DNA of 64,000 bases. Source: a virus. Every line of letters starts with the position of its first letter. The stretch's first letter is position 1. A model generated the notes under the pieces. It was not told the origin of the DNA. It made no database searches and saw only the letters and a list, made by a program, of their open reading frames with translations. The translations under genes and the position numbers were made by a program. Of the stretch, positions 8,444-60,416 are shown one piece after another. The DNA is taken from the IMG/VR virus record IMGVR_UViG_3300029951_000015; one strand, 5' to 3'.

Positions 8444-8579
8444 TCAAATTTGGGCGATTTCCTGGATTTGTACGCTCCCTTGCAGCTCACTAATACCGGC
8501 TACTTGCGACAGGCCAGGATTTTACTGGCCTCGCGAGACACGGTTTTTAACGATTTTTTCATCTTTTGGAATCCTAAAA

Positions 8580-8765: not shown

Positions 8766-8949
8766 ACAGGCACTCGCAATCCTCAAGAGCGAGCCGGATA
8801 GGTCCGTCGCATCTGTCGCAGACCAATTAAAAATCTCTAAGCGAGTGATCTACACGGCTCTAAAGGTGCGTCGGGATACCGCGCACCTGCGCTGCCTGAC
8901 GTGCGATCAGATTTTGCCTTACATGACGCACGCGGCACAGAAAGACTAG
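8752..8949 (+). CDS. small HTH DNA-binding protein (paralog of 8580..8765)
   Basis: KQALAILKSEPDRSVASVADQLKISKRVIYTAL aligns with the neighbouring gene. The two overlap by 14 nt. Confidence 0.5.
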   Translation: MSKTKQALAILKSEPDRSVASVADQLKISKRVIYTALKVRRDTAHLRCLTCDQILPYMTHAAQKD

Positions 8950-27416: not shown

Positions 27417-27422
27417 TCAACA

Positions 27423-27486
27423 CATATAGCGTCAGTGCTATATAGCGTGCTATATGCAATGCTACACATACACGGTGCTATATAGC
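27423..27486. repeat. cluster of GCTATATAGC palindromes upstream of parA
   Basis: Perfect 10-bp palindromes at 27437-27446 and 27477-27486. Degenerate copies at 27423-27430, 27449-27458 and 27461-27470. Confidence 0.6.
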
Positions 27487-27510
27487 ATGATGTATCAGCG
27501 TAGTGGAATG

Positions 27511-27545: not shown

Positions 27546-27609
27546 AAACGTTTGACTCGCCGAACTGACGCCGCTAATCTGGTAGATGGGTTAATCACAT
27601 GGAGCGGTG

Positions 27610-28260
27610 ATGCTATATACGTTTGGTGCAGAGAAGGGTGGAGTGGGTAAGTCCACGCTCGCGGAAGAGATGGCCGTGGAGCGTGCGAGTAGGGGATTTG
27701 AGACCCTACTGGTCGACCTAGACCCGCAGCGCACGACAACTGAGTGGGCCGCCGCGCGAGTCTATAACGAGGTGGTTCCACAGATCGTGTGTGTGTCGAA
27801 GGGTAAGAGCCTTACGAAAGAGCTTATCAAGATGCGCGAGGCGTTCGACACAGTGATCGTGGATATTGGCGGTAAAGACACACGGGACTTGCGCGAGGCT
27901 ATTGTCATTGCAGACAAGACCATCGTACCGATCAAGCCGTCGCCGGCAGACCTACGCACGTTCCCGGACTTCGCAGACTTTATCCGGCGCATCAACGCTG
28001 AGATTGAGACGCCCAAAGACGTGTGCGTGGTGCTCAACATGGTCAACGGGTCGAGCAACCAGTTCAAACGGTTCACGGACGGATTCGCGGAGTTCAGCGA
28101 CTGTATGAAGCTGCTGGATTCGCGTGTTTGCGAGCGCGTCGCGTATCAGAACGCATATGAGGCAGGGAAGGGCGTTCGTGAGCTGTCTCGTAGCGAGTAT
28201 GACCCCAAAGCCGCAGCTGAAATTGAGAGCCTTTATCTGGAGATTTTCGGAAATGAGTAA
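27610..28260 (+). CDS. parA: ParA-type partition ATPase (small, type Ib-like)
   Basis: Deviant Walker A GAEKGGVGKST and LLVDLDPQ. About 216 aa with no N-terminal HTH. GGAG lies 5 nt before ATG 27610. Confidence 0.8.
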   Translation: MLYTFGAEKGGVGKSTLAEEMAVERASRGFETLLVDLDPQRTTTEWAAARVYNEVVPQIVCVSKGKSLTKELIKMREAFDTVIVDIGGKDTRDLREAIVIADKTIVPIKPSPADLRTFPDFADFIRRINAEIETPKDVCVVLNMVNGSSNQFKRFTDGFAEFSDCMKLLDSRVCERVAYQNAYEAGKGVRELSRSEYDPKAAAEIESLYLEIFGNE

Positions 28261-28633: not shown

Positions 28634-28677
28634 GTGCTCACTAACAAAGGTTTTGCCCCTTTTCTGCTAAACCGGTT

Positions 28678-28831
28678 TTCGTCTTTAGAGTGATCGTGAT
28701 ATTCGCCTTTTGACTGATGGTTTACAAGAGCAGAATCGCTGGTTTTCGTCTTTTGACTGATGGCTCTTTTAAAGTAGTTTCGAGGTTTGAGAGAAGGGCG
28801 CGGACGCTGCGAATATCGCCTTTAGGCTGAT
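28678..28831 (-). repeat. four inverted-orientation iterons
   Basis: TTCGYCTTTWGRSTGAT at 28678, 28702, 28745 and 28816 is the complement of the direct iterons downstream. Confidence 0.7.
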
Positions 28832-28850
28832 GATTCAAGGGGTAAACCAT

Positions 28851-28910
28851 TTATAAACATTAAAGACGATTAGGGGGCTTTCAGAAATTCTGGAAGCCCT
28901 TTGTTTATAA
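28851..28910. promoter_or_regulatory. AT-rich nested dyad between the iteron blocks
   Basis: TTATAAACA (28851-28859) pairs with TGTTTATAA (28902-28910). These enclose GGGCTTTCAG-AAATT-CTGGAAGCCC. Confidence 0.5.
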
Positions 28911-28930
28911 GGCTTTACAGGAAATGCGTT

Positions 28931-29159
28931 GTCAGGCTAAAGGCGAATATGGATGCGCCTAAAGGCGAGTTTTTGTCAGGCTAAAGGCGACATTGATCAG
29001 TCTTCAGACGAAAACCGTCAGTCATAGGGCGAATGCAGCGATCAGCCTAAAGGCGAGGTTACTCGGATCAGTCAAAAGACGAATCTAGACATCAGCCATA
29101 AGGCGAAAGAGTGCATCAGTCAAAAGGCGAACATCAAGTGCCATCAGTCTTAAGGCGAA
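28931..29159 (+). repeat. ten direct 17-bp iterons (oriV-like)
   Basis: RTCAGYCWWAAGGCGAA-like units start at 28931, 28953, 28976, 28996, 29017, 29041, 29067, 29091, 29115 and 29143. Spacing is 20-28 bp. The array ends 69 nt before the initiator gene. Confidence 0.8.
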
Positions 29160-29227
29160 CATTTCCGCTTTAATTTGATTTGGACCCCGTGCTAGAGTCC
29201 TGAAAACCAACACGCAAGAGGCCAGCG

Positions 29228-30160
29228 ATGGAAGACGCACGGCAGTTTATGGACAGGGTACACGAGGTTGCTCAGCGGGCTTCGAAGTCGGTAAAAGCTA
29301 AGCCTGAGAAAGCCTTGAAACTAAAGGTGATCCAGCAGTTGATGCTCTGGTCTGACAAGGTGAGGGGGCTTCCTAACTCGCTGGCTCGATGCGCCTTGTT
29401 CACTGTGGGAAACCGCAATGAACCGCGCCGCATGTACGCACGAGAGGTCATAGCGTCGCTGCAGGGAATCGTGATCCAGTACACGGGTGAGGAGCTGCGG
29501 CAGGACGACGAGGACGTGTTCCTTCAGATCGTCCACTTGGGTCGGATGGTTGATGTCGGAGAGCCGTTCGTCGTCACGGGCCACATGGTTCTGACGGCGC
29601 TAGGGTGGGGCAGGTCGTCGGACAAGTACAAACGCCTCCTGGAATCCATCGGCAGACTCTCTGAGGGCACCATATGGGTCACGTACACCAACGAGGACGA
29701 AGTGGAGGCGAGCGTCGCTGCCGGCGCGGCAGCGCCTAAGAGAAAACGGAACGGTTACAACGGCCGCTTGATCGCTAAGTTGAAATGGCGAGAAGAGGGC
29801 GAAGAGTCCGAACAGGGGAAACACGTCAAATGGCAGTTCCGTCTTGACCCCGACATCATTAATCTGTTCGGCAAGGATGAATTCACGCTAGTTGACTGGG
29901 AGCAGCGCCTGTCGCTCACGTCGCTGGAGAAGTGGCTGCACAGTTTTTATTTCACACATCGCGAGCCTTACGCCTACAAGACATCGACGCTGTACACGCT
30001 CTGTGGCAGCAGCTGCGCCACACTGGCCAAGTTTCGCTACATGCTCAAGGGCGCACTCAGGAACCTGGAAGAGTCCGGCTTCTTCGAGTCGGCTTCGATA
30101 GACCCGCGGACGGATTTAGTGCAGGTTAAACGTAGGCGTCAGACCGCAATCGCAGCCTGA
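29228..30160 (+). CDS. trfA: plasmid replication initiator, TrfA-like
   Basis: VRGLPNSLARCALFTVGN, IVIQYTGEELRQDDEDVFLQIVHL and WLHSFYFTHREPYAYKTSTLYTLCGS match my memory of TrfA-family blocks. Immediately downstream of the iterons. Confidence 0.6.
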   Translation: MEDARQFMDRVHEVAQRASKSVKAKPEKALKLKVIQQLMLWSDKVRGLPNSLARCALFTVGNRNEPRRMYAREVIASLQGIVIQYTGEELRQDDEDVFLQIVHLGRMVDVGEPFVVTGHMVLTALGWGRSSDKYKRLLESIGRLSEGTIWVTYTNEDEVEASVAAGAAAPKRKRNGYNGRLIAKLKWREEGEESEQGKHVKWQFRLDPDIINLFGKDEFTLVDWEQRLSLTSLEKWLHSFYFTHREPYAYKTSTLYTLCGSSCATLAKFRYMLKGALRNLEESGFFESASIDPRTDLVQVKRRRQTAIAA

Positions 30161-30750: not shown

Positions 30751-30869
30751 CATAGAGCGCTGAGGACCCTATGAAAAATTATAAGGTGCAATAAATTATA
30801 CGATACGGACGGTTACGTATCCACCCAGCAGCTGTGTACCGATCGATAGCAGAAATGCGTGACAAATAA

Positions 30870-30900
30870 AACGAAAAGCGCTCTACAAAGCGTTTTCGTT
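30870..30900. promoter_or_regulatory. dispersed palindrome, copy d (upstream of parB-like gene)
   Basis: AACGAAAAGCGCTCTACAAAGCGTTTTCGTT, followed by TGTG-TATTAT. Lies 40 nt before the parB-like start. Confidence 0.6.
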
Positions 30901-30939
30901 TGTGTATTATTCGGATACACCCAACCCCAAGGTATCCGA

Positions 30940-31878
30940 ATGGCACAAATACTTTCGATGAAACAGCGCGCCGAAGGGCACGAACCTGGCGTCAAAAAAC
31001 ACTCAAAGTACTACAAGCTGAACCCAGCGCTGCTCCTGATCGAGGAGGGCTTCAATGTGCGAATCGATACGCCGGAGGCGCGCGAGAAAATCGGTAAGAT
31101 GAAGCTAGACATCTTAGCCGGTGCGAGCATGCCGGCAATCGACGTGCGTAACGATGTAGGCGGTTCGTTCGTCGTCGACGGCCATCGGCGCACTACCGCG
31201 TTCCAAGAGCTGATCGCTGAGGGTCACATAATTCTCGAAGTGGACGTGCGCGAGCTTAATGGCAACGCCACTGGTCGCAAGCTCGGCACCGCAGTACCCC
31301 TTTCGCCGGAAGCGCAAGCTTTGGCAGACCGCGTGTTCCATATGCTCGGCACCGCGGAAGGCTCGGAACCCATATCGACGCTGGAACAAGGCATCGGCTA
31401 CCTCAAGCTCGTTAAGATCGGTATATCGCGCGCAGTGATTGCGGCCGAAGAGCACAAGTCGCAGTCGCACGTCGATCAGGCGCTGACGCTCGCCATGTCC
31501 AGTCCAGACGTACATATGCTGGTAGCCCTAGGCAAGGTTCCGGGCCGGGTAGCAATCAAAGCGATCAAGGAGCATGGCAGCGACGCAGGACCGTTCCTGC
31601 AGTCGCTGCTCGATAGATCGAAGAAAGGTAAGCTGACGCAGAAGTCTATCTCTGGAACAGCCCTTCCCCGCAAACTGGCCGACCGCTGCGAAAACACCAT
31701 CCGAACGATTTTCACGCAGTCGTTCGAAATCGCAGCGCGCGTTGCGATTCAAGACGCAAAAGATGAGGATTTCGTGAACGTGCAGATGCCCAAGGCGCAG
31801 CTCCGCGCCCTGCTGGACGCGAACGAAGAAATCGCCAAGGTTCGCACGAAAGCCGGCAGCAGTGCAGCTCCCGCGTGA
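30940..31878 (+). CDS. parB: ParB/KorB-like (ParB N-terminal domain) protein
   Basis: Trimmed to ATG 30940, which has AAGG upstream; the track start at 30859 would read through the palindrome. IDVRNDVGGSFVVDGHRRTTAFQEL matches the ParB/Srx box. Confidence 0.65.
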   Translation: MAQILSMKQRAEGHEPGVKKHSKYYKLNPALLLIEEGFNVRIDTPEAREKIGKMKLDILAGASMPAIDVRNDVGGSFVVDGHRRTTAFQELIAEGHIILEVDVRELNGNATGRKLGTAVPLSPEAQALADRVFHMLGTAEGSEPISTLEQGIGYLKLVKIGISRAVIAAEEHKSQSHVDQALTLAMSSPDVHMLVALGKVPGRVAIKAIKEHGSDAGPFLQSLLDRSKKGKLTQKSISGTALPRKLADRCENTIRTIFTQSFEIAARVAIQDAKDEDFVNVQMPKAQLRALLDANEEIAKVRTKAGSSAAPA

Positions 31879-35738: not shown

Positions 35739-36121
35739 ACCCCAGCGTCTTCGACGGTGATCGTGACGGGCAGTACGTCATTCCCGCCAACAGTCCCTTA
35801 GGGATCAGATTTCCGATGCCTATCTCGAAGGGATACGCGCGAGAGATGAATGGCGATTTCGTCAAAACAGGGAGAAGCCAGCACTCAAAGGAGGGCAACC
35901 TCGTGTGGGTGAATGTTACTCATGCCATAGAGCAGAACATTCCCTACAGAGTGATTACGCATAAGAACCCGCTCGACGGGCAGGTAATTGGGTATGAGGT
36001 GCTTATGATGAGCTTTCACTGCTTGATATGCAGCCGAAAACTCGACCAGCCCGAAGATCCGCTCAGCCTCGATTGTGGTGGTGACTGCCTAGGTTGTATG
36101 AACAGAATTGAAAAGGAATGA
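35735..36121 (+). CDS. hypothetical protein with C-terminal zinc-ribbon
   Basis: TTGA-coupled TTG start (uncertain; first ATG is at 35816). CLICSRKL...DCGGDCLGC. Confidence 0.4.
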   Translation: MNPSVFDGDRDGQYVIPANSPLGIRFPMPISKGYAREMNGDFVKTGRSQHSKEGNLVWVNVTHAIEQNIPYRVITHKNPLDGQVIGYEVLMMSFHCLICSRKLDQPEDPLSLDCGGDCLGCMNRIEKE

Positions 36122-36122
36122 A

Positions 36123-37340
36123 ATGACACAAGCATGGAACATTAGAAACCCGATCGGTGGCGCAGGTGAGCCTTATGCGACCGGACCTGCAGGAATCGTC
36201 ATCAGGCCAGGAGTCACTAACTCCCCTGAGTTTTTCGAGGCGGTGATCGCTACGCTGAACCGCGAGTTTCCACAACATTCCGCTGATGCCTCCGTCGAAC
36301 CGGCGCCAGGCGAGTTTGTATTAGGTTCGCCGGCGATCCCCGTCACGCATTCCGCGCAAATCGGAGATGCAGTAGTCGTGATCTCCGCGGCGACCGCTGA
36401 GGAAGTGCTTGAAGTACTGAACGGCTCGCAGCGTCCCGCAAGCTACGGCGCTCCTGTCGCTATCACGAACATCACCACAAGCGCTGAAAACCTTATAGAC
36501 TTCGCGGCTTTGGGACCTATTTGCGGTCTTGCCTCTGACGGAGTCGATGGTCGCCCCCAGGTCTATATCACTCTGCCGAATGTGTTGGATGCTAAGGGCG
36601 GTGCTACGACTATCGATTTCACTGGGCATCTTACCAATTTAAGTACCGGCGATCACTGGAGCGTCCGCACCATCTTCAAGGGTAAATCGAGGAGTCCGTA
36701 CAGTCGACGCGTGTTTATGACGGCTGGGTGCGACAACGAAAATGAGATGTTATCCGAGCGCATAAAGCAGCTGGAAGCCGCTAATCTCGACCAGGACCGC
36801 CGCATGCAGGAGTTGGCAGCTGAGCGCGACGACTTTAAGGGTAGGGTCGACCAGCGGACCCGCGACGTAGATTATTACCAGGACATTATGGAACGGTGCT
36901 GTCAGTATCTCGATATCAAGTATGACGAGAGCGAGGCACTGAACCGCAGATACGAGACGTTGTTCGACAAAATCAAGCAAGGAATCGACGTTGGCCCCGG
37001 CTTGCAAGTTCACGGGACAGCCGGAGCAGTTTCGGCGGTGTACGAACTGCTCGCGCGTTACGCGAAGGTGCAACGCAGAGAGGGTTACCTCACCGCGCGC
37101 ACAGCCAACTCACTGCTCATAGGTAGAGATCACCAGGTGTACGGGAGCGCCGAAGCCTTGAAAGCAACAAGTGCTTTGATGCGGTGGCCCCGCGTAGACC
37201 GCATGTTTCGAGCAGCCGTAAGTACACCGTTCTGGAATAACTCTATTCGTCTCGATTTCGAGAACGAGGAGCAGCGGCAGCTGGCGCTCCAAGAATGGCG
37301 TAACGCAGTCGCTGCACACTACTTGCGAGGCAAATCATGA
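36123..37340 (+). CDS. hypothetical protein with central coiled coil
   Basis: ATG 36123 has AAGGA 6 nt upstream. 405 aa. I recognise no domain. Confidence 0.55.
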   Translation: MTQAWNIRNPIGGAGEPYATGPAGIVIRPGVTNSPEFFEAVIATLNREFPQHSADASVEPAPGEFVLGSPAIPVTHSAQIGDAVVVISAATAEEVLEVLNGSQRPASYGAPVAITNITTSAENLIDFAALGPICGLASDGVDGRPQVYITLPNVLDAKGGATTIDFTGHLTNLSTGDHWSVRTIFKGKSRSPYSRRVFMTAGCDNENEMLSERIKQLEAANLDQDRRMQELAAERDDFKGRVDQRTRDVDYYQDIMERCCQYLDIKYDESEALNRRYETLFDKIKQGIDVGPGLQVHGTAGAVSAVYELLARYAKVQRREGYLTARTANSLLIGRDHQVYGSAEALKATSALMRWPRVDRMFRAAVSTPFWNNSIRLDFENEEQRQLALQEWRNAVAAHYLRGKS

Positions 37341-41905: not shown

Positions 41906-42068
41906 AGAAGAAGTTGAGGCGCTCCTGAGAGCTAAGAGGGAGTCGGATGGAATCGACACGGGGCTTTACGACTGCGGATTACAGTACGTGGTCATGGACG
42001 AAGTGGACGGCGTAGGTTTGACGTTCACTTGGTTCTCTCAGATGAATGATTTAGACGATCTGGTTTAA
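41898..42068 (+). CDS. hypothetical protein (56 aa, below ORF-track cutoff)
   Basis: The ATG overlaps the upstream stop region by 8 nt. The ORF fills the gap to the next gene. Confidence 0.35.
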   Translation: MSREEVEALLRAKRESDGIDTGLYDCGLQYVVMDEVDGVGLTFTWFSQMNDLDDLV

Positions 42069-42078
42069 GGAAAACGTA

Positions 42079-42501
42079 ATGGATTGGTTCAACCTCAAAG
42101 ACATCTACACCGACAAAGAAATGCGCGATACCTACTCCAGCTACCGCAGCCGTGTAGCTGGTGCTCAGGCGCGACACGTACGCCATCTGGACATCCCGCG
42201 GGAAGCTGGAGCCGGAGCTGGACGGCCCGCGCGTGTCACGCTGATCACGCGGGAAGGTGTAGATGCGCTGTACGCGCCGGCCGCCGCGCCTGCAAAGCTG
42301 AAGCCTTACGTCTGCCCGATGCGCCTGACCGATAAAGCGCGTCAGCACATAGCGGTTACGGACAAGTACACGCTTGGGCTTCGGTTCTCCACGGAAGGGC
42401 TTGAGAAGCGTGCCCGAATTCTCGACACGGATCAATTCATCGCGTTCCTTGTGAAGATCGGCAACGTGGATTTGATCGAGCCGGATTTTATCAACCTCTA
42501 G
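42079..42501 (+). CDS. hypothetical protein
   Basis: 140 aa with AAGGAAA upstream. Confidence 0.5.
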   Translation: MDWFNLKDIYTDKEMRDTYSSYRSRVAGAQARHVRHLDIPREAGAGAGRPARVTLITREGVDALYAPAAAPAKLKPYVCPMRLTDKARQHIAVTDKYTLGLRFSTEGLEKRARILDTDQFIAFLVKIGNVDLIEPDFINL

Positions 42502-42562
42502 TCTTTACAGCGGGTTAGTGTCATCTTTGGCATTTTATAGATAATAATATTTAGGATTCCTA

Positions 42563-43507
42563 ATGAAACAGGTCTACGTTGAAAAGAAGCTGAACAAGGC
42601 CAACACCGTGTTGGTCGGCATCATGGAATCCATCTCGCGCGAGTACTCTGCAGCGGGATACACCATGACCACTCGACAGCTCTATTACCAGCTCGTTGCG
42701 CGCGACTACATCCCGAACACGCTGCAGGAATACAAGCGCGTCGCATCGATTATCAACGACGCCAAGCTCGCCGGCCTGCTCGACTGGGACGCGTTTGAAG
42801 ATCGCACGCGGGCATTCGAGCGTCGTGGTCACTGGGATAACCCGGAAGACATGGTGCAGGCATGCGCCAACCAGTTCTACGTTGATATGTGGGAAGGACA
42901 GGACCGTCGCGTGTTCGTGATCGTCGAGAAAGAGGCGCTGGTAGGCGTCCTGAATCGCGTCTGCGAACGATTCGACGTTCCGCTGCTCGCAGCTCGTGGC
43001 TACCCCTCTGCAACAGTGCTGCGCGAGTTCGCCGTCTCCGACATGCGAAAGGCCGAACAAGCGGGTCAAGACTGCTTGATCTTGCACCTGGGCGATCATG
43101 ATCCGAGTGGTATTGATATGACGCGCGACTTGCAGGAACGCCTGTCCTTGTTCACCAACTCGCACGTCGACCTGCGGCGCATCGCTTTGAACATGCAGCA
43201 GGTCGAAGCCGAAGACCCGCCGGAAAATCCGGCCAAGATCAGCGACTCGCGCTTTGCAGACTACCAACGCAACTTTGGTGACAGTAGCTGGGAACTTGAC
43301 GCGTTGCCGCCCGAGTTCTTGGACTCGCTGCTAACTGAGCAGATCCGCGAAAACATAGACGAGCCGGTTTGGCGTGAACGCGAAGATGAAATCATTGACG
43401 GCCGCCAGGCGTTGAACGAGGCAGTCGACTACATCGCGAACGGGCTACCTCACTACAAAGACAAGATGACCGGTCGCACGGGTAAGTTTGAATCGGCGCT
43501 GGACTGA
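42563..43507 (+). CDS. Spo11 / topoisomerase VI subunit A-like protein (stand-alone)
   Basis: TTRQLYYQLV resembles the 5Y-CAP R-x-x-Y-Y element. VIVEKEALVGVL, ARGYPS and LGDHDPSGIDM resemble the Toprim E, GxP and DxDPxG elements, in the canonical order. 314 aa. Confidence 0.7.
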   Translation: MKQVYVEKKLNKANTVLVGIMESISREYSAAGYTMTTRQLYYQLVARDYIPNTLQEYKRVASIINDAKLAGLLDWDAFEDRTRAFERRGHWDNPEDMVQACANQFYVDMWEGQDRRVFVIVEKEALVGVLNRVCERFDVPLLAARGYPSATVLREFAVSDMRKAEQAGQDCLILHLGDHDPSGIDMTRDLQERLSLFTNSHVDLRRIALNMQQVEAEDPPENPAKISDSRFADYQRNFGDSSWELDALPPEFLDSLLTEQIRENIDEPVWREREDEIIDGRQALNEAVDYIANGLPHYKDKMTGRTGKFESALD

Positions 43508-43510
43508 GCG

Positions 43511-43912
43511 GTGAGCAAGCAGCCGAGGAAACGGACCAAGAAGTATGTCCCGAAGCGCGTCAGCTCACCGGTCATGCCGGAGCTGCACGACATCATTGCG
43601 ATGGGCATGCACACGTCGTTCTCAACGCTGAAAAGCCGGCCGGATGAAAATGCGTTCTCAATGCTGGCCAGGATTGTAGGAATGGTCGGCCGCGCTATCG
43701 AGGGCGACCCGAGGTTTGCAGCGGAACGGCTGCAGATCAACTCGGCCGGCGCAGCGCTCAACCAGATCGGGGCCAAGGTGGGTCCGTTGCGCGCGACGGC
43801 GCTGGAGCTGCTGCCTGTCTTGAACGCAGTGCGAATGATCGATGTTATCTTGCCGCGCCTCGATGTCGCGAAGTTGCATCAGGCTAATTTGGATATGGCC
43901 TGCCTCAAATAG
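43511..43912 (+). CDS. hypothetical protein with basic N-terminus
   Basis: GTG start 3 nt after the upstream stop. 133 aa. KQPRKRTKKYVPKR. Confidence 0.45.
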   Translation: MSKQPRKRTKKYVPKRVSSPVMPELHDIIAMGMHTSFSTLKSRPDENAFSMLARIVGMVGRAIEGDPRFAAERLQINSAGAALNQIGAKVGPLRATALELLPVLNAVRMIDVILPRLDVAKLHQANLDMACLK

Positions 43913-43914
43913 AA

Positions 43915-43936
43915 AAGCCGGGCTTTCGCCCGGCTT
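43915..43936. terminator. hairpin, possible terminator
   Basis: AAGCCGGG-CTTTCG-CCCGGCTT has an A-tract upstream but no T-tract downstream. Confidence 0.4.
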
Positions 43937-44014
43937 CCCCCTCTACGCACCACCCCTGGATCACCCTATGAATCATCGCAGCGCGAAGATATCACAGTTC
44001 TATTGGGAACTGTG

Positions 44015-44776
44015 ATGGAGACCATACTGTTTCCGTACGTTATTGAAGGAAAGTCGAAAAATCTAGCGATCCGAGTGAGTGGTGAAGTCATTGGCGTCTT
44101 ACCCATTCTGGCGATTCTTGGCTTGAAATGGCAGTTAGAGCGTGTCCATCTCAAGCCAAAGTACGACATAAACGTTGCCGGCCGCGTCGAACCAGCAGTA
44201 GGCCTTTCAGCATTGGAAAATTGGTTAGGACTACTTAAGCCATCAGCATCAAAAGAAGGCGTTTTGACGCAGCATTTCAGGGACCACCTGTGCGCAGCGC
44301 TCGTGTCCAAGTCCAGTTCACTTGGCGCTCGGGCGCGTGAGCAAAGCGCTGCAGTCACAGCTGCTAAGGGTGCGGTCGCTCTCATCGGCGCACCTCTTGA
44401 AGCGATTGACCACTTCCGCAGAGACGCCAGTCTAGGTTCCGAACGTATTCAGCCGGATCTGATCGCCAAAGTGGCCCACAGAGGCGTGCTCGATCTGTTC
44501 GTCCGGCCGCCTCCTTCAATGTGGGACGACTCACTTGCCGCAATCCAGCGTGTGACCGTCAGCCTGGCAGACGACGCCTACCGGCCGCGCCTGCTTCAAG
44601 ACTACCGCAGAGCGAATCAAGAGGTCTTGGTCGGGCCGCAGATGCTTGAGAGGTATCCAGACAACCCTCTAGTCCACCGACGCCTCCTGCCGGCGCGTAA
44701 CACGGTGGAGACCGTAGGTGGCGAGACGCAGGTGACCACCGTGCCGGAGCACCTACAGAAATTCCCCTGGGAATAA
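44015..44776 (+). CDS. hypothetical protein
   Basis: ATG 44015 (the track TTG at 44003 is possible). 253 aa. Confidence 0.5.
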   Translation: METILFPYVIEGKSKNLAIRVSGEVIGVLPILAILGLKWQLERVHLKPKYDINVAGRVEPAVGLSALENWLGLLKPSASKEGVLTQHFRDHLCAALVSKSSSLGARAREQSAAVTAAKGAVALIGAPLEAIDHFRRDASLGSERIQPDLIAKVAHRGVLDLFVRPPPSMWDDSLAAIQRVTVSLADDAYRPRLLQDYRRANQEVLVGPQMLERYPDNPLVHRRLLPARNTVETVGGETQVTTVPEHLQKFPWE

Positions 44777-44803
44777 GCAACTAACGATCTAGGAGTAAAA
44801 CGG

Positions 44804-46207
44804 ATGTCTGCAGTAGCGAATATTTGCAAAAAAATAAACTTCCCACTTACGCCCCTCGGCTACCAGGTAGAGAACGTCGACGCGAGCATTGCGGAAAGCA
44901 TCGATCACCACGGCATGTATTGGGACATGGGCGCAGGCAAGACGTTCGGATCGACACTGCGAAACATGATCTACCGAGACGAGACTGGAGCGCAAATCAT
45001 CCAGGTCGTACCCCCCATTCTCATTAGGCAATGGGCGCGATGGCTGGACAGCTGCGGGATATCGAACACGGTCTACGTCGGAACCAAGAAGCAGCGATCA
45101 AAACTCACGCTAGGTCGCGACACGAGCTACCTGCTGATTCCGCTTGGCATCCTCAAGAACGACTACGATCGAATCTATGAGACCTACAGTGCGCGCAAGA
45201 TATCCGTGGCTGTCGACGAGGCTACCTGCATCAAAAACTACGACTCAGGCAATTTCAGGGCGATCCTGCAGCTGCAGTCCGGCCAAGCCATCATGCCCAT
45301 GACCGGTACTCCCCTCGCAACACCTAGTGACGCCTACGCATACATCAAGCTGATTAGCCCGGAAATTTACCGAAGCTTCTCCCAGTTCGAGAACATCCAC
45401 GTCGGGTCGAAGGATTACTTCGACACGGTCACAGAGTGGAAAAATCTTGACGTTTTGAAGAAAAACTTAGGACTCCGATCTTCTTTTATATCGACGCCAG
45501 AGGTTCATCCTGACATGCCGCGCGCGCGAATCTCGGATATCGAGTACGACTTGGCCAAGTCACATGAGAAGCTGTACCGGACGCTGGTAGACCAACAGCT
45601 GCTCGTGTTCGACAACGGCGGCGCTATCGATGCGTCAACGCCATCTAAACTCTACCATGCGGTCCAGCAGATCGTGCTGAACTACGGCTACTTCGCGCAG
45701 CAGAACGATCTAGTCCCCGCAGGCTTTGAAGTGCTTGATGAAATGGTCGCAGAGGTCGGCCGAGCAAAGCTGCTGGTGTTTGCGAACTACAAGATGTCCG
45801 TGCGCGCCATCGTGGAGCATTTGCGTAAGACGGGCGTAGCAGCTGTGCAAGTGAACGGCGAGATATCCGCCAAGGAGAAGTTCGACAACATCGAGATGTT
45901 CTTGAAAAACCCGCTGTGTCAGGTTCTCGTTGTCAACACGATATCCGCCGGCAAAGGTCTCGACGGCCTGCAGCATGTCTGCCACTACATGCTGTTTATG
46001 GAGGTGCCAACCGTAGCTCTGACATTTTGGCAGGCTGTCAAGCGTCTTGAGCGACCTGGACAGAAGTTTATCACGGACGTACGGATCGCCACGGCGCTCG
46101 GAACCGTACAGGTGCGGATGCGCAAAAACCTGATTCAGAACGATGGCCTCGTAAATTCCCTAGTTCCGTCTGCAAACGATCTCCGAAATGCGCTCTACGG
46201 GAAGTAG
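44804..46207 (+). CDS. SNF2-family helicase
   Basis: AGGAG upstream. MYWDMGAGKTF (motif I), VAVDEATCIKN (II), PMTGTPL (III), QAVKRLERPGQ (VI). Confidence 0.8.
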   Translation: MSAVANICKKINFPLTPLGYQVENVDASIAESIDHHGMYWDMGAGKTFGSTLRNMIYRDETGAQIIQVVPPILIRQWARWLDSCGISNTVYVGTKKQRSKLTLGRDTSYLLIPLGILKNDYDRIYETYSARKISVAVDEATCIKNYDSGNFRAILQLQSGQAIMPMTGTPLATPSDAYAYIKLISPEIYRSFSQFENIHVGSKDYFDTVTEWKNLDVLKKNLGLRSSFISTPEVHPDMPRARISDIEYDLAKSHEKLYRTLVDQQLLVFDNGGAIDASTPSKLYHAVQQIVLNYGYFAQQNDLVPAGFEVLDEMVAEVGRAKLLVFANYKMSVRAIVEHLRKTGVAAVQVNGEISAKEKFDNIEMFLKNPLCQVLVVNTISAGKGLDGLQHVCHYMLFMEVPTVALTFWQAVKRLERPGQKFITDVRIATALGTVQVRMRKNLIQNDGLVNSLVPSANDLRNALYGK

Positions 46208-49086
46208 TGCGGTTAGAATCCTCCCTTCCCCTTAGCACCCACAACCAAAGACACCACCCCATGTCTGACACATTTTTTTACCACACATCAAATAAGACAT
46301 CTGGTTGGACAGCAGCGCCGTCGTCGTCGCGCGAAGCCGTCATTGCGGCCAAGAAACCGAAGTACGTCACGGTCTTAGACCTGGACACACTGGTCAACGA
46401 CGAAACACCTCTCGAAGACACGTTGAAGATCCGTTACTCCGGTCCGTTCTACGCTGACTGGGATTGCCCGGACATTATGGAAGGCGCAGCATCCGTTAAT
46501 CGTTATCTTGACCTACTTAGTCAGGACTACGATGTAAATGTTGAGTGCGTCGCACTGTACGCCACGGGCGGCCGGGGATTTCACGCGGAGATTCCGTTCG
46601 CTGTGATGTCGGCTTCCAAAGCAGGTGTGATGTACTTGCCGTCGATCTACAAGGAAATCGCAAACGAGACGTTCGTCGAGTTCTTGGACTTGGCCGTCTA
46701 CTCAGCCAAGCGCGGCCGGATGTGGCGCACACCGAACGTCGAGCGGGAAACACCCGGTAAGTTTAAAGTGCCTATCTCGCTCGATCAAATGCGCAACATG
46801 ACGCAAGCGCTGTACGACGAGCTTTGCAGCGAGCCTCAGCCAACCCCTGAGCGCGCCGAGCCTACCCTAGCGCCGGCTTTCGCTGCCCTCTTCGCTGACC
46901 TGAAAAAGAAGGTCGAGCAGAAGTTCCGTGAGCGCAAGAACAAGAAGGGAGACGACAGCGCCGTCAAGCGCTTCAAAGGCGAGTGGCCCGAGTCGGTCTT
47001 AACGCTGATGCGCGGCGAGAACCTGAGCAAGGACGTAGGCCTGAACAAGGTAGCGCTGCAGATCGGCATCTTGTCCTGTGCTCTTGGGAAAACGCTCGAT
47101 CAGCATCTGGAAGCCTGCGAGGGGCTGATATCCACTTATAAGGGCGATGGCCACAACACGCGGTCGTCAGTACGCAATGAGCTGAAGCGCATGTACGGGT
47201 ACGCGAACGGCAACGTCGCCTACGCCTACTCGCCCGCGGCGATGGCACACATCATGGACGTGCCCCAGCTGGCCAAGGATCTGCGAGGCACAGCTGCTCA
47301 AGTGGGCGGCGACTCTAACCCTGACGATTTGAGCGACCTATCGCGCGGCCTGATCAACGGATCGAACGGCATCTACAGCATCAAAGAAGACACGCTGTAC
47401 CGCGAGACCAATTGGCACTTCGATTCCGACTCCGTTCTGGAGATCACGGACGCGGAGACTGGCGTGTCACGCGGATTCATCCTGCAGAGCCGTGACAGTG
47501 GTCGGCCGACCCAGGAAATCAACGTCGACCACGGTACGTTCGTGTCCGGCGACAAGCTAAAGGGCTTTCTGGCGTCTAAAGGCGCAGTTGCGCCGAACAT
47601 GGACACTCTCAAGGCCGGCCGCCTGCTGGCCTTGATCATGCAAAGCGCCAAGGCCAACGGCCAGATCAAGGCTCTTCCCAAGGAAGGATTCAACCTCATA
47701 GGCGATCACATGGTGTGGTGCAGCCCGAGTGGATGCTGGGCGCACAATTCGCCCGACAACTATCGCTTCAGGGCCTGTGCGGGCGGCGAAAGCGGCAATT
47801 TCAGGTCCGACGTAATGGCAGCGCCTCAGTTGAAGGATCTGGCGAGCGCGGGCGACGTGATAGACGCCCTGCTCGCCTTCAACTTGAACGATTTCACTGT
47901 GGCCGCGACCCTCGGCTGGTTCGTAGCCTGCTGGCACAAGCCGCTGCACATCGCGCTGGGCCAGTCGTTCCCAATCCTTCAAGCTTACGGCGAGTCGGGC
48001 GCGGGCAAGACCCTGCTCTGTATGCAGCTGCTCCGCATGTTCTATTTCAACGAAGCGCCTAAGGCGATGAATGCCTCACAGGGAACGGCTTACGGCCGGC
48101 GCGTCATGTTCGGCGGCGCTACCTCGATCCCGATCCTGGTCGACGAGTTCAAGCCTACGCGGATGTCGATTGAAGCAGCACGTGACTTCCGCATGACAAT
48201 CCATGAGATGTACACCCCGGCATTTCAGTCGCCGCGGGGCGGTGGTGACGCCAGGTCGAGCGCACCAGGTAACTGGGCCGAGCTGTCGCAGGACACCAAA
48301 ACCACGCCGCTGTGCTTCACAACAGAGACGGCCGAGTCCGAGACCGCGATCCAGGAACGCACGATTTCGGTGCCGTTCAGCAAGGCAGCGCGCGGCGGCA
48401 CAGCAGACGCAGCGTTCCAGAAGCTGACCGGCAACCCCGAAGTACTCGCAGCCGTTGGCAAGCTACTTCTGCAAGGCACAGCAGCTGCGAAGAGAGATAC
48501 CCTCAAAAGCCTGATCGAGCGCGGACACACAGTTGCTAAGGAGAACTTGAACCGCTCGGGCAACAGCCGGATCGTCTACAACGCGGGCGTCGCCATATCG
48601 GGCTTGGGCTTCCTCGGTATGGTTCTGCGGCACCAGATGCCTGAAGAGTTTTCCGAGCGCTTTGAGGCGCGTCTGGAGACCTTGCGCGCGGCGCTTCTTG
48701 ACGCTACCAACTACACGACCCTACAAGCCGCGCCGGAAATCGTAAAGCTGCTACGTTTCATGATCACTATTTCGCACCAGGACGAAGCGGATGCGGACCA
48801 CAACGTGCGTCTTGGCAAAGAGTACGCATACTTCGGCAAGGGTCTAGACCTCGACTTGGACGTGGATGCTTTCTACCTGCGTTACCGGACAGCGGCGACA
48901 CGGCGCAGCCAGGTTCCGGCGTTCGCAGACCCGGATACTTTCCTCGCAGCGTTGGGTTCGTCGTCGCTGCTGAAGGAGAACTCACCGCCCGATTCCGGGC
49001 TGATTAACGGCACGAATGCGCCTCGCGTTGTGCGTCTTAGCGCGATTGCACTCGAAGAGTACAAATTAGGAGCGTTTATGGCATGA
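46207..49086 (+). CDS. DNA primase-helicase fusion (AEP prim-pol N-terminus, SF3/D5-like P-loop C-terminus)
   Basis: VTVLDLDT, YATGGRGFHAEIPF and FLDLAVYSAKRGRMWRTPN match AEP motifs I-III. AYGESGAGKTL and PILVDEFK are Walker A and B. The start may instead be ATG 46261. Confidence 0.75.
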   Translation: MRLESSLPLSTHNQRHHPMSDTFFYHTSNKTSGWTAAPSSSREAVIAAKKPKYVTVLDLDTLVNDETPLEDTLKIRYSGPFYADWDCPDIMEGAASVNRYLDLLSQDYDVNVECVALYATGGRGFHAEIPFAVMSASKAGVMYLPSIYKEIANETFVEFLDLAVYSAKRGRMWRTPNVERETPGKFKVPISLDQMRNMTQALYDELCSEPQPTPERAEPTLAPAFAALFADLKKKVEQKFRERKNKKGDDSAVKRFKGEWPESVLTLMRGENLSKDVGLNKVALQIGILSCALGKTLDQHLEACEGLISTYKGDGHNTRSSVRNELKRMYGYANGNVAYAYSPAAMAHIMDVPQLAKDLRGTAAQVGGDSNPDDLSDLSRGLINGSNGIYSIKEDTLYRETNWHFDSDSVLEITDAETGVSRGFILQSRDSGRPTQEINVDHGTFVSGDKLKGFLASKGAVAPNMDTLKAGRLLALIMQSAKANGQIKALPKEGFNLIGDHMVWCSPSGCWAHNSPDNYRFRACAGGESGNFRSDVMAAPQLKDLASAGDVIDALLAFNLNDFTVAATLGWFVACWHKPLHIALGQSFPILQAYGESGAGKTLLCMQLLRMFYFNEAPKAMNASQGTAYGRRVMFGGATSIPILVDEFKPTRMSIEAARDFRMTIHEMYTPAFQSPRGGGDARSSAPGNWAELSQDTKTTPLCFTTETAESETAIQERTISVPFSKAARGGTADAAFQKLTGNPEVLAAVGKLLLQGTAAAKRDTLKSLIERGHTVAKENLNRSGNSRIVYNAGVAISGLGFLGMVLRHQMPEEFSERFEARLETLRAALLDATNYTTLQAAPEIVKLLRFMITISHQDEADADHNVRLGKEYAYFGKGLDLDLDVDAFYLRYRTAATRRSQVPAFADPDTFLAALGSSSLLKENSPPDSGLINGTNAPRVVRLSAIALEEYKLGAFMA

Positions 49087-55761: not shown

Positions 55762-57273
55762 ATGACCGAATCAATTACCGTCGAACAGGCGGGGGAAGCG
55801 CTCGTACTTACGGATGATCAGCAGACCTCGTATGACGAGGTCATGGCCTGGCTTACCGAGCGCGACCCATCTGTCAAACAGCCTGACGGCATCGACCTAC
55901 GCTACAGGCGCCCGAAGTTCGCACTGCCCGCGGGCGCTGAGGCTTGGTTCAAGGACAACCAGGACGATTACTTCGTTCTCAAAGGCTTCGCCGGCACCGG
56001 CAAGAGCACGCTCACGTCGAAGCTGATCAAAGACCTGAGCGCCCAAGACTGGAACATGGCAGTCTGCGCGCCGACGAACAAGGCCGTAGGCGTTATCCAG
56101 GAGAAGGTTCGAGACGCTATGGGTGACAGCGTACTCGCGGCGACCTTCTGCTCGCTGCACTCCGTGTGTGGTATCCGCATGATCGAGACCGACGACGGCC
56201 ACCACATCGCGTCGGACAGCGGTCTGTCTAACCTGAATCAGTACGACCTCGTAATCATCGACGAAGCATCTATGGTCGACACGGCGATGTTGTTGCGCTC
56301 CGTGCAGAGCGGCCGAGGCAGCTGCTTGGTGCTGTTCGTAGGCGACCCAGCGCAGCTGCCGCCGGTCATCGAGAAGTCTGTCGCCAAGCTGTTCCGGCTT
56401 CCTCGGGGCAGCATGCTTTCCGAAATCACGCGCGTGGCCGCCGGCAACCCGCTGATCGCAGCAGCTATGCACGTCCGAAAGAAGAATCGTTGTGACGAGC
56501 TGCTTTCGGAAGGCGCTGATGAAATCTTCGCCGGCATGGGGCCTGACGACCGCGTGAAGCCATCGGATTTGATGGAATGGCTTCCCGACTCGATGGTCCG
56601 TGGCAGTAGCGCGCTGGCTCAGATAGGTATTGACCTGCAGCGTGAAGGCCACGACGCACGGGTGATCGCATATCGGAACAGTACCGTCCTGCGGAACAAC
56701 GAAAACGCCCACTTCGCACTACACCCGAGCAGCGGATACACCTTGTTCTCTGTGGGCGAGCGCGTGATTGTGCAATCTGCCTGCAAGGCCGAAAGCCTGG
56801 ACACGGGCAAGACCGTCGATTTGGTAACGAGCGAAGAGCTGGTTGTCGAGTACGTCGAGCTGACCAAGCACCCGCTATACCCTACGATCAACGTGTACCA
56901 GCTGGCTCTGCGTGACTACCTGGGCAACAGCGTTGTGGTCTACGTGCCGAAGCTGATGACCGCTTTCAAGCACCACTGTGCCAAGCTTTTCGACGAAGTA
57001 CGAGACCTCAGCCAGCAGCTCAAGCGCCGGTACTCCATTCAGGTGTCCGACCAGCTCAGACGAGCGCGGGGCGAGGCTTGGGGTTTCAAAAACAGCTTCG
57101 CTGAGATCCGCCACACCTACTCCATTACGGCCCACAAGTCGCAAGGATCGACGTTTGACATCGTGTTGATCGACCTGCTGGATCTAATGACCATGCAGTC
57201 TGCGTTCGAATTCAACTGTGCGCTGTACGTGGCACTGACCCGCGCACGTCTTCGCGCTTACATTTCTTATTGA
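55762..57273 (+). CDS. RecD/Dda-like SF1 helicase
   Basis: LKGFAGTGKST (Walker A), LVIIDEASMV (Walker B), ITAHKSQGSTFD and LYVALTRAR (C-terminal SF1 motifs). Confidence 0.8.
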   Translation: MTESITVEQAGEALVLTDDQQTSYDEVMAWLTERDPSVKQPDGIDLRYRRPKFALPAGAEAWFKDNQDDYFVLKGFAGTGKSTLTSKLIKDLSAQDWNMAVCAPTNKAVGVIQEKVRDAMGDSVLAATFCSLHSVCGIRMIETDDGHHIASDSGLSNLNQYDLVIIDEASMVDTAMLLRSVQSGRGSCLVLFVGDPAQLPPVIEKSVAKLFRLPRGSMLSEITRVAAGNPLIAAAMHVRKKNRCDELLSEGADEIFAGMGPDDRVKPSDLMEWLPDSMVRGSSALAQIGIDLQREGHDARVIAYRNSTVLRNNENAHFALHPSSGYTLFSVGERVIVQSACKAESLDTGKTVDLVTSEELVVEYVELTKHPLYPTINVYQLALRDYLGNSVVVYVPKLMTAFKHHCAKLFDEVRDLSQQLKRRYSIQVSDQLRRARGEAWGFKNSFAEIRHTYSITAHKSQGSTFDIVLIDLLDLMTMQSAFEFNCALYVALTRARLRAYISY

Positions 57274-57281
57274 GGACTACT

Positions 57282-58682
57282 ATGAATTCACAACAAGTAT
57301 TTGATGTGATCGAAGCAATAGCTGAGACCGCAAGCAAGAAGGAAAAGCAGGCGCTGCTCGCAGCCAACATCGGACAGCCTTTGTTCAAGCGCGTGCTCGT
57401 CGCAGCTCTCGACCCGCTCATTAGCTATGGCATCAGCAAGCGCCCTCCGTCTGGAACGAACAGCGCGGGGCGGGGAGCACTGTTCGACGACGGTACTTGG
57501 GCAGTTATTGACGACTTGGCCGCGCGCCGGCTGACCGGCCACAACGCGATTGCCGTCTTGTGCGGCGAGATGGAACGCCTCGAACCTAAATCGGCCGAAC
57601 TGTTCTGGCGCATCGTTAAAAAAGACCTGCGCGCGGGCTTCGGCGCAGAGACGGTCAACAAGGCATCTAAAGGGCTGATTCAGGCGTCTCCCTATATGCG
57701 CTGCGTGCTGCCCGCAGACGCGAAGTTCGATGAATGGGATTGGGTCAAGGGTGCATTCAGCCAGCAAAAGGCAGACGGCGCATTCACGAACGTCGACCAC
57801 GACCACGCCGGCATCGTGCGTCTGACCACGCGGCAGGGTAATGAGTTGCCGATTGAGCAGTTTGCCGAAGTTGTCGACGCTGTTAAGGTGCGCCTGCAGC
57901 TTGGCACGCAAACGCATGGAGAAATCCTCGTGCTGGTCGACGGCAAGATCGCGGATCGCGCGACAGGTAACGGTATTCTCAACCGAGTGGCGGCAGGCGG
58001 CAGCTTTACTGAGCGCGAGGTTCCCCTATTTTTCGCGTGGGACCAGATCCCACTGGAGTGTGTGAAGCCGAAGGGCGAGTACACGGTGCCGTACCGCGAG
58101 CGCTGGTCGTCGCTGGTGGATCAGGTCGTGGGCGAAGGCAACTCGATAATGTCGGTGCGCCTGATCCCTACCGAACGTGTGCACTCGCTCAAGGACGGCT
58201 ACGCCCACTGCACAAGCCTGCAGGTCGAAGGCAAAGAAGGAACCGTCCTCAAGAACGGCAGCGGCTTCTGGAAAGACACCAAGAGCGGTAACAAGGATGT
58301 CGTGAAGCTCAAGCTCGAAGTGGATGTCGACCTGATTACGAGGGAAGTTCTGAACGGTGAAGACGGCACGAAAAACGACGGGCGCGCGGGCCGCGTACGG
58401 ATGGAAACGCGCGACGGGTTGCTGAGCGTGAACGTTGCAGTGAAAAACGAGAAGCTGCGCGACGCAATCGACGCGAACCGGGCCGACTTCACCGACCGTA
58501 TATGGACCGTGCGCTTCAATGAAATCACGGAACCGTCCGACAGCAACCCGCTGCACTCGTTGTTTCTGCCGCGCATGGTGGAAGACTGGTATCGCAGCGA
58601 TAAAAGTGACGCGGACTCGCTGCCCGAAGTCTACGCACAGCGTGACGCTAAAGTCCAGGGCACGCCCGAGGTGGTCGCATGA
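57282..58682 (+). CDS. lig: ATP-dependent DNA ligase
   Basis: ATG 57282 has GAGGA upstream. QQKADGAF (KxDG motif I), HGEILVLVDG, GKEGTVLKN. Confidence 0.75.
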   Translation: MNSQQVFDVIEAIAETASKKEKQALLAANIGQPLFKRVLVAALDPLISYGISKRPPSGTNSAGRGALFDDGTWAVIDDLAARRLTGHNAIAVLCGEMERLEPKSAELFWRIVKKDLRAGFGAETVNKASKGLIQASPYMRCVLPADAKFDEWDWVKGAFSQQKADGAFTNVDHDHAGIVRLTTRQGNELPIEQFAEVVDAVKVRLQLGTQTHGEILVLVDGKIADRATGNGILNRVAAGGSFTEREVPLFFAWDQIPLECVKPKGEYTVPYRERWSSLVDQVVGEGNSIMSVRLIPTERVHSLKDGYAHCTSLQVEGKEGTVLKNGSGFWKDTKSGNKDVVKLKLEVDVDLITREVLNGEDGTKNDGRAGRVRMETRDGLLSVNVAVKNEKLRDAIDANRADFTDRIWTVRFNEITEPSDSNPLHSLFLPRMVEDWYRSDKSDADSLPEVYAQRDAKVQGTPEVVA

Positions 58683-59233
58683 AGACCGACATCCCCACCT
58701 TCAGCGGCAACTACTTCAGCTTCACTGACGTGGTGTCTAACGTCGTCAGCATCGAAGACATTGCGCACGGCCTATCAAACGTATGCCGGTTCGCCGGCCA
58801 GTGCCCGCAATTTTACTCCGTCGCACAGCACAGCGTCATGGTCGCCTACATCCTTGAAGAGTTATACGGGATACACGATCCAGAAGTACTTCTTCAAGGT
58901 CTTTTCCACGACGCCTCCGAGGCTTTCCTGGGCGACATGACTACACCGCTGAAGAAGCTGATCCCCGAGTACATGGTGATCGAGGCACGCGTACAGGCTG
59001 ACCTTATGCGGCGCTTTGGTTTGCCATCCTCTCTGCATCGAATCGTAAGTCTCGCGGATCTCTCAGCGCTCCGGATGGAGAAAGAGCAACTGCTTAAGAA
59101 CCACGACGTGTGGGCGGTTTTAGAGGGCGTCGAGTGCCTTCAAGAATTTTTCGTTTTCTTCTACACCCCTGAGCAGGCGAAGGCTCAGTTCTTGAATACC
59201 TTTTACCGACTAATGAGCGCCCGCAGATGCTGA
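58679..59233 (+). CDS. HD-domain phosphohydrolase (YfbR-like 5'-deoxynucleotidase type)
   Basis: SVAQHSVMVAYIL and LFHDASEAFLGDMTTPLK. 184 aa. Confidence 0.6.
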   Translation: MKTDIPTFSGNYFSFTDVVSNVVSIEDIAHGLSNVCRFAGQCPQFYSVAQHSVMVAYILEELYGIHDPEVLLQGLFHDASEAFLGDMTTPLKKLIPEYMVIEARVQADLMRRFGLPSSLHRIVSLADLSALRMEKEQLLKNHDVWAVLEGVECLQEFFVFFYTPEQAKAQFLNTFYRLMSARRC

Positions 59234-60294: not shown

Positions 60295-60416
60295 AGATAC
60301 TTGGATGGACCCGTGCGCAGTGGCGTGAAGCGCACAAGCATGCGAGTCGTGCAACCACGCTCGCGGAATACCTTGATCGTTTGAAAAACGCATTGGAGCG
60401 AAGCGCAAATGCTTAA
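60291..60416 (+). CDS. hypothetical protein (41 aa)
   Basis: GTGA overlap with sbcD, and its stop overlaps the sbcC start. VKILGWTRAQWREAH echoes 31875..32123. Confidence 0.3.
   Translation: MKILGWTRAQWREAHKHASRATTLAEYLDRLKNALERSANA

Follow-up and report, generated by a model that had tools for sequence, protein, structure and literature searches.

A Mini-A-type topoisomerase-like gene in the DNA-metabolism module of a tailed phage with a probable iteron-type origin

The Mini-A gene, its motifs and its family

The DNA under study is a stretch of 64,000 nucleotides (nt) from IMG/VR virus record IMGVR_UViG_3300029951_000015, referred to here as the window, and the subject of this analysis is a plus-strand gene at 42563..43507 (ATG start, 314 amino acids, aa) that encodes a truncated 5Y-CAP domain, a Toprim domain and a T2BI box. 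The predicted protein almost certainly belongs to Mini-A, a subfamily of type IIB topoisomerase-like proteins. A Shine-Dalgarno sequence (AGGA) is located 8-11 nt upstream of the ATG, and the N-terminus of the protein, MKQxY, is common to its homologues. The window is phage DNA: genes for head morphogenesis, the portal and the large terminase subunit are found on the minus strand at 1278-5186, and a small terminase subunit is encoded as well.

The open reading frame (ORF) and four motifs reported in a first-pass annotation, which was made from the sequence alone, were all recovered at the residues given there. RQLYY (R38-Y42; 42674..42688) represents the 5Y-CAP catalytic element, with Y42 predicted as the catalytic tyrosine and R38 as the arginine paired with it; Y42 was preferred because of the spacing of R99 and Y103 in Top6A of M. 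jannaschii, as given in PMC7671362. VIVEKEAL (residues 119-126; 42917..42940) forms the first Toprim strand with E122 as metal-binding glutamate, RGYPS (residues 145-149; 42995..43009) is a conserved Toprim loop with the equivalents KGQPA in Top6A and GKGFPD in Spo11, and LGDHDPSGIDM (residues 176-186; 43088..43120) contains the DxDxxG metal-binding motif of Toprim (D178, D180, G183). The T2BI box, SWELDAL (residues 242-248; 43286..43306), had been overlooked and is present in the Mini-A-specific form xWELDAL. An additional conserved Mini-A motif, PPENPAKISDSR (residues 219-230; 43217..43252), emerged from residue conservation in 101 relatives, with K225 and D228 invariant, and in the diverse alignment A3; placed after the Toprim core and ahead of the WELDAL box, it is strongly conserved in Mini-A in the form PPxNPAKxxDSR. 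All of these elements are encoded on the plus strand.

Mini-A was described by Takahashi et al. (NAR Genom Bioinform 2019/2020; PMC7671362). As described there, the family consists of proteins some 300 aa long, encoded by viruses of bacteria and archaea, in which no domains other than Toprim and a truncated 5Y-CAP are retained. They carry the motifs RxxY/FY, the Toprim glutamate and DxDxxG, and lack a Bergerat-fold partner nearby; the xWELDAL form of the T2BI box is said there to suffice for separating Mini-A from Topo VI and Topo VIII, and Chi-like Salmonella phages are cited as carriers. The protein of the window agrees with this description in its length and domain content (314 aa, 5Y-CAP and Toprim only), in R38-Q-L-Y41-Y42, in E122 followed by D178-H-D180-P-S-G183, in the box S242-W-E-L-D-A-L248, in the absent B subunit and in its tailed-phage host, and it matches PHROG 6247 ('DNA topoisomerase') from end to end (E 1.6e-122). 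The first-pass annotation had described a stand-alone, B-less protein like Topo VI-A and Spo11 with homologues of unknown activity on mobile elements, which is the published Mini-A family. The copy in the window shows no difference of substance from other Mini-A proteins, although its C-terminal tail (residues about 294-314), modelled with lower confidence, extends slightly further.

With a family profile built from the window protein and 32 relatives, 10,703 representatives of 50%-identity clusters were matched at E<=1e-3, and 2,204 of them at E<=1e-30; together with the PHROG match, these numbers show that the gene did not arise as an ORF by chance. Homologues were found by tblastn in 84 phage records, with Achromobacter phage JWF (58% identity, E 1e-119) and the Chi-like Salmonella phages BP12C and SPN19 (59% identity; E 4e-109 for SPN19) as top matches; further carriers comprise Xylella phages Sano and Salvo, Pseudomonas phages NP1 and PaMx25, cyanophage Pam3, actinophages, Bacteroides phages, and the archaeal virus HCIV-1 (27%, E 2e-12). 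The nearest relatives among those listed are encoded on two metagenome contigs, L003 (79% identical) and L004 (76%). The identical gene, together with the spacer in front of it, is also present in four Joint Genome Institute (JGI) metagenome contigs of the same phage, and no substitutions were seen in the gene among these near-identical contigs. Positions 42000-46500 of the window gave no megablast match against GenBank phages, a collection that does not contain the phage itself.

The backbone of the phage differs from that of the Chi-like carriers and is distantly related to PMBT3/Lana-like phages: the primase (46207-49086) and SbcD (59227-60294) are nearest to those of Pseudomonas phages PMBT3, Lana and UAntarctica and of Vibrio SHOU24-like phages (23-34% identity). 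With the closest copies of Mini-A in phage JWF and Chi-like phages, and those of primase and SbcD elsewhere, the Mini-A gene seems to have been exchanged between phage lineages.

Homologues (26-45% identity) also occur in 44 plasmid records, of which 35 are from Streptomyces and at least one is linear; an example is Streptomyces anulatus CP109415.1 (L093; linear, 53.5 kb, homologue at 8001-8861). Mini-A is presented as virus-associated in the 2019 paper (PMC7671362); the plasmid records may be phage-plasmids, or the family may have a branch on plasmids. Other variants among the homologues are a fusion to an N-terminal DUF1643 domain (P0330), a C-terminal Cys-rich tail of the CxxCxGxG type (P0250), and a C-terminal extension of about 170 aa (P0370). 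In Parabacteroides phage PDS1 (L086, 4914-5800) the homologue is annotated as two adjacent coding sequences, gp28 'DNA topoisomerase' and gp29 'DNA primase', and was matched by tblastn in two pieces. The gene may be split or frameshifted there, or its sequence may contain an error.

Residue conservation was examined in a sample of 101 diverse relatives that are 35-56% identical to the window protein. R38, Y42, R83, E122, K123, G146, S149, D178, D180, G183, K225, D228, E244 and D246 are present in all 101; position 41 is Y or F in 100, and W243 and A247 are each kept in 99. Two homologues, P0383 (712 aa) and P0265 (677 aa), each contain a Hint/LAGLIDADG intein between '...RVE' and 'CWVEKDA', at a point 3-4 residues ahead of the Toprim glutamate that is equivalent to E122. 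Inteins favour the catalytic sites of important, core replication enzymes, and their position here lends indirect support to a functional importance of Mini-A.

Judged from these residues, Mini-A is probably an active tyrosine transesterase. A catalytically silent DNA-binding protein that has merely retained the fold would agree with the naming of homologues as 'DNA binding protein' in some database records, and with the fact that no Mini-A activity was reported in the literature searched. The invariance of the tyrosine, the arginine, the three acidic metal ligands, and the glutamate and aspartate of the T2BI box in all 101 divergent sequences is hard to explain without catalysis, however, and a silent binder is therefore considered highly improbable.

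Predicted fold and relation to Topo VI-A, Spo11 and JetD

An AlphaFold2 model of the protein, computed with the diverse alignment A3 (86 sequences), reached a predicted local distance difference test score (pLDDT) of 94.3 and a predicted template-modelling score (pTM) of 0.88. In the model, the N-terminal domain (residues 12-104) is helical; an alpha/beta Toprim domain (115-243) comes next, and the C-terminal part is again made of helices. In a Foldseek search against 350,542 PDB chains, only 1d3y_B (E 3.3e-6), 9o0g_A and 9o0g_C reached E<=1e-3; all three are Topo VI-A chains and were matched with probability 1.0, and an earlier, poorer model gave the same top fold matches. A different fold family, which the first-pass annotation had left for structure prediction to detect, is not indicated, because the sole significant fold matches are Topo VI-A.

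Top6A (PDB 1D3Y, 2Q2E, 9O0G), the best and only significant match of the model, shares with Mini-A the same two domains in the same order, and the same catalytic Arg/Tyr, Glu and DxD residues. In a local hhalign run of the 101 Mini-A sequences against 77 Top6A sequences, 188 columns were aligned (E 0.0027) with the motifs in register, pairing TLRQLYY with TLRE(M/L)YY, VEK(D/E)A with IETGG, RGYxS with KGQPARS, and GDHDPSG with TDGDPWS (Mini-A and Top6A, respectively); this alignment begins at template residue 48 of Top6A, and many of the template sequences are themselves partial. Mini-A differs from Top6A in being about 60-90 residues shorter, in its T2BI box (WELDAL, compared with (R/K)xExx(A/S) in Top6A), and in the lack of Top6B and, as stated in PMC7671362, of the B-binding N-terminal portion of 5Y-CAP. 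Compared with Top6A and Spo11 proper, the protein thus agrees in fold, but is without a match to their sequence models and without a B subunit.

Yeast Spo11 carries the same motifs in the same order (RDIFY, IVIVEKEAVF, GKGFPD and FTDADPYGISI; checked against PDB 8URQ_A), with RDIFY, VEKEA and DADPYG as counterparts of the catalytic motifs of Mini-A. Spo11 is eukaryotic and longer than Mini-A, and works in vivo with TOP6BL and other accessory proteins; mouse SPO11, according to PMC11922746, cleaves DNA in vitro without a partner, and as such sets the strongest precedent for DNA breakage, without strand passage, by an enzyme of the Mini-A fold that has no B subunit.

A distant relationship of the Toprim domain to that of JetD, a component of the Wadjet system, is indicated by sub-threshold matches: DUF2399, the JetD Toprim, was matched at E 0.0012 with 19.1 bits (Pfam cut-off 23.4), and the JetD models of PADLOC at E 0.0012-0.04, in the Toprim part only. 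No NCBIfam defence assignment was obtained for Mini-A, and no JetD chains are among the listed PDB fold matches. Mini-A further differs from JetD in that it retains the invariant Arg-Tyr pair in a CAP-like domain and in that no JetABC genes are present; the sole SMC-like gene of the window (60409-62547) is SbcC-like and paired with SbcD. The view of the first-pass annotation that the gene does not serve in defence appears reasonable on these grounds.

A related proposal, that Mini-A is a nuclease or decoy for host takeover or counter-defence, which might cut host DNA or interfere with Toprim-based systems such as Wadjet (JetD), could draw on this weak Toprim similarity, on the apparent movement of the gene between unrelated phage backbones, as is typical of accessory genes, and on the homologues on plasmids. 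It is regarded as improbable: the JetD matches stay below curated cut-offs and within the Toprim region, the top three fold matches are all Top6A, the gene is consistently situated inside replication/recombination modules and not in early or accessory regions, and inteins are typical of core replication enzymes. The gene context, described in the following section, is also what bears on the preferred reading of Mini-A as an enzyme of phage DNA.

Gene neighbourhood, partner search and replication origin

The structural genes are followed by a long block of co-oriented genes on the plus strand that ends in a DNA-metabolism module. Besides Mini-A, this module comprises genes for a MazG-like protein (start 41291), an SNF2 helicase (start 44804), the primase (46207-49086), an RNase T-like exonuclease (start 50183), Pol A with 5'-3' exonuclease (start 51634), a Dda-like helicase (55762-57273), an ATP-dependent ligase (57270-58682), and ThyA (start 62699), all on the plus strand; 3' of the polymerase, and on the same strand, it encodes SbcD (59227-60294) and SbcC (60409-62547), the homologues of Mre11 and Rad50, respectively, that constitute SbcCD.

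Immediately upstream of Mini-A, a plus-strand gene for a protein of 140 aa (42079..42501) gave no match in Pfam, PHROG, NCBIfam or PADLOC, and keeps its place 5' of Mini-A in L003 and L004 (134-139 aa there, 53-55% identity). It is separated from Mini-A by a plus-strand spacer of 61 nt (42502..42562), which includes the AGGA and has a G+C content of 31% (56% for the window); this is among the lowest 0.7% of 61-nt windows, in line with the AT-rich upstream region noted in the first-pass annotation. The spacer contains one weak sigma-70-like site (42518-42545, 9 of 12 positions), although in the promoter scan overall such promoter-like sites were no commoner than in shuffled sequence. The window has about 17 AT-rich islands, this spacer among them, and the next one follows the primase gene at about 49139; the AT-rich motif of the spacer is unique within the window. 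Judging by its base composition and this site, the spacer is possibly a promoter. In L003 and L004 the spacer 5' of Mini-A is just 21-23 nt long and not AT-rich, so that the arrangement is a feature of this phage lineage and is not conserved along with the Mini-A gene.

The earlier proposal that Mini-A heads a replication operon is therefore borne out in part. The AT-rich spacer with its weak sigma-70-like site speaks for it, and a transcription unit of Mini-A, the 133-aa gene that follows it, a 257-aa gene, SNF2 and primase is plausible in this phage; on the other side, no terminator-like site was found before Mini-A, the MazG-like gene and other co-oriented genes lie directly upstream, and the relatives have only the short spacers.

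The gene directly downstream (43511..43912, plus strand, GTG start) encodes, as had been noted, a basic protein of 133 aa, with an isoelectric point of 10.3. Just four homologue clusters of this protein were found among 5.8 billion proteins; the homologue in L004 is 66% identical and is split from Mini-A by a gene for 161 aa, and no homologue lies next to Mini-A in L003 or in phage JWF. The 133-aa protein is thus lineage-specific and, contrary to its earlier consideration as a partner, not a general partner of Mini-A.

A wider search for a partner was made with Pfam across the 64-kb window and covered all ORFs of 150 aa or more except antisense shadows. Neither HATPase_c nor Topo VI-B was matched, which extends the earlier remark that no GHKL-type ATPase is encoded nearby to the whole window. 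When the ORFs of 84 related loci were clustered, the most frequent neighbour family of Mini-A occurred in 17 loci. The commonest neighbours in these loci are SNF2 and SF2 helicases, ATP-dependent ligase, ThyX, RNase H, Cas4-type exonuclease, primase and SSB, and in phage NP1 a Sak4-like annealing protein adjoins Mini-A. The context of Mini-A is consistently one of replication, recombination and nucleotide metabolism, both here and in the relatives.

These data bear on the possibility that a true type II topoisomerase has Mini-A as its cleavage subunit, together with an ATPase or clamp partner ('Mini-B') that is too divergent to be recognized or is supplied by the host. Archaeal Top6A needs Top6B, and several large ORFs of the window are without a family match (among them 36108-37340, 410 aa; 30859-31878, 339 aa; 24891-25706, 271 aa); the possibility is also left open in PMC7671362. 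It is nevertheless thought unlikely to hold, given that no GHKL fold was found in the ORFs scanned, that no gene family accompanies Mini-A across the 84 loci, and that Mini-A, according to PMC7671362, lacks the B-binding part of 5Y-CAP. Two ORFs were considered as 'Mini-B' and rejected: the family of a 532-aa ORF occurs in a different set of phages than Mini-A, and the 410-aa ORF is without any homologue in phages.

A probable replication origin is located elsewhere, 13 kb upstream of Mini-A. Fourteen copies of ATCAGYCWWWAGRCGA (28679-29158) are arrayed at 28673..29162, four on the minus strand followed by ten on the plus strand, with a spacing of about 22-28 nt; the window contains 15 matches to this sequence, compared with 0.45 expected by chance, and 14 of the 15 are in the array. 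Directly 3' of these iterons, a plus-strand gene (29228..30160) encodes a TrfA-family replication initiator of 310 aa (Pfam TrfA, E 1.6e-30, 106.6 bits, cut-off 22). Iterons and TrfA-like gene together have the form of a classical iteron origin of the plasmid type within a tailed-phage genome. A ParA/MinD-like ATPase is encoded at 27607-28260 with short repeats of the GTGCTATATAGC type 5' of it (27421-27495), which could be an operator or a centromere; the presence of the ParA-like ATPase and TrfA suggests that the phage may persist as a plasmid prophage.

The first-pass annotation had suggested a role of Mini-A in replication initiation, and a rolling-circle initiator role was also proposed by Medvedeva et al. 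(2021) for Mini-A of skuldviruses (Asgard viruses), that is, for viruses without any other replication gene. Such an initiator would make a site-specific nick, become covalently linked through a 5'-tyrosyl bond, and start rolling-circle replication in the manner of HUH Rep proteins. The invariant tyrosine, arginine and metal ligands would suit this activity, as would the position of Mini-A at the front of the SNF2-primase block and behind an AT-rich spacer. The phage of the window, however, has the TrfA-family initiator beside 14 iterons as well as its own primase, helicases and Pol A; the spacer is not kept in the relatives, and around the Mini-A gene only chance-level two-copy repeats, and no conserved sites or anything origin-like, were found. 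The TrfA-like gene and the iterons thus make Mini-A an unlikely primary initiator, and the initiator explanation as a whole is viewed with considerable doubt, if with less than the hidden-partner and host-takeover explanations. A secondary switch from theta to rolling-circle replication by Mini-A is possible, and overlaps with the explanation preferred here.

Proposed activity and role

The explanation preferred here, and held with slightly better than even confidence, is that Mini-A is a dimeric, Mg-dependent tyrosine transesterase that acts on replicating or recombining phage DNA. By analogy with Top6A and Spo11, the protein would dimerise such that the WELDAL box of one protomer packs on the Arg and Tyr of the other; such a contact, made by the T2BI box with the Arg and Tyr of the opposite protomer, is described for Top6A in PMC7671362. 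Mg2+ would be held by E122, D178 and D180, and Y42 would attack the DNA backbone to yield a covalent 5'-phosphotyrosyl link. Since there is no ATP-operated gate, ATP-driven strand passage is not expected, and Mini-A would be a break-and-rejoin or a break-only enzyme; that a B-less enzyme of this fold is able to cut DNA is made credible by the partnerless cleavage by mouse SPO11 reported in PMC11922746. The enzyme would act on phage DNA in middle or late replication, and its action is placed after primary initiation because of the TrfA/iteron origin. Candidate roles comprise the opening of circles or replication intermediates for recombination-dependent or rolling-circle synthesis, and the unlinking of daughter molecules; this specific biological assignment is tentative, and is held with clearly less confidence than the enzymatic activity.

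Several observations weigh against this explanation. The global template-modelling scores (TM-scores) of the model to Top6A (1d3y, 9o0g) are only 0.30-0.36, with root-mean-square deviations of 16-21 Å, so that the domain arrangement, and hence a Top6A-like dimer geometry, are tentative; in the predicted monomer the relative orientation of CAP and Toprim may differ from that in Top6A, or the rigid superposition may fail to capture the match. The Pfam models TP6A_N (PF04406) and Toprim PF21180 were not matched, leaving DUF2399 as the only hit, below its cut-off; neither the family hidden Markov model nor phmmer found Top6A or anything else relevant among PDB sequences; and the hhalign probabilities against Top6A are 1.4-11% (1.4-1.8% against an archaeal Top6A alignment). 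The sequence routes being weak, the link between Mini-A and Top6A rests on fold, motif order and the literature. The DNA-metabolism neighbourhood fails to discriminate between possible roles, and this analysis revealed neither a cleavage site or target repeat nor a conserved partner. Finally, no Mini-A protein with demonstrated activity was found, the literature after 2020 that was retrieved consisting of reviews and the rolling-circle hypothesis, and reviews up to December 2024 still give the function of Mini-A as unknown.

A more specific variant takes Mini-A as a self-sufficient breaker of the Spo11 type, in which the dimer would cut the circular or theta-replicating genome and stay linked to the break, and a nuclease would free 3' ends that prime concatemer synthesis, thus starting late recombination-dependent or rolling-circle replication. 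The bound Mini-A would be removed by the SbcCD of the phage, or, in other Mini-A phages, the Cas4-type exonuclease would take this part. MRX/MRN removes covalently bound Spo11 from DNA, and the removal of covalent Mini-A by phage SbcCD is a speculation by analogy with this processing. No SbcCD was found in the Mini-A neighbourhoods of the Chi-like phage SPN19 and of NP1, so that Mini-A and SbcCD do not generally co-occur. This variant is given a small chance, below that of the initiator explanation and slightly above that of a hidden partner.

Mini-A is one of the most widespread proteins of phage replication modules without a known activity, and is the simplest natural version of the DNA-cleavage core of Topo VI-A and Spo11; its function bears on how many of the siphophages handle their replication intermediates, and on the origin of type IIB topoisomerases and Spo11. 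The family, its motifs, the absence of a B subunit and the viral distribution were already known (2019), as was the initiator idea for Asgard viruses (2021), and the copy in the window opens the question no further than the cultured carriers do, i.e. the Chi-like phages, NP1, JWF and Sano. New here is the occurrence of Mini-A alongside a TrfA/iteron origin and a phage SbcCD, which argues against a primary initiator and suggests a processing partner. If the Spo11-type variant were true, it would represent a viral counterpart, and possibly an ancestor, of the logic of meiotic Spo11 and Mre11-Rad50.

Other predicted features of the window, from the pooled Pfam matches of its ORFs of at least 150 aa, comprise NUMOD4 and HNH_3 domains of the homing-endonuclease type, HD_4/YfbR-like, DUF6651 and DUF7338 domains, the small terminase subunit, a weak RecU match, and dGTP_diPhyd_N.

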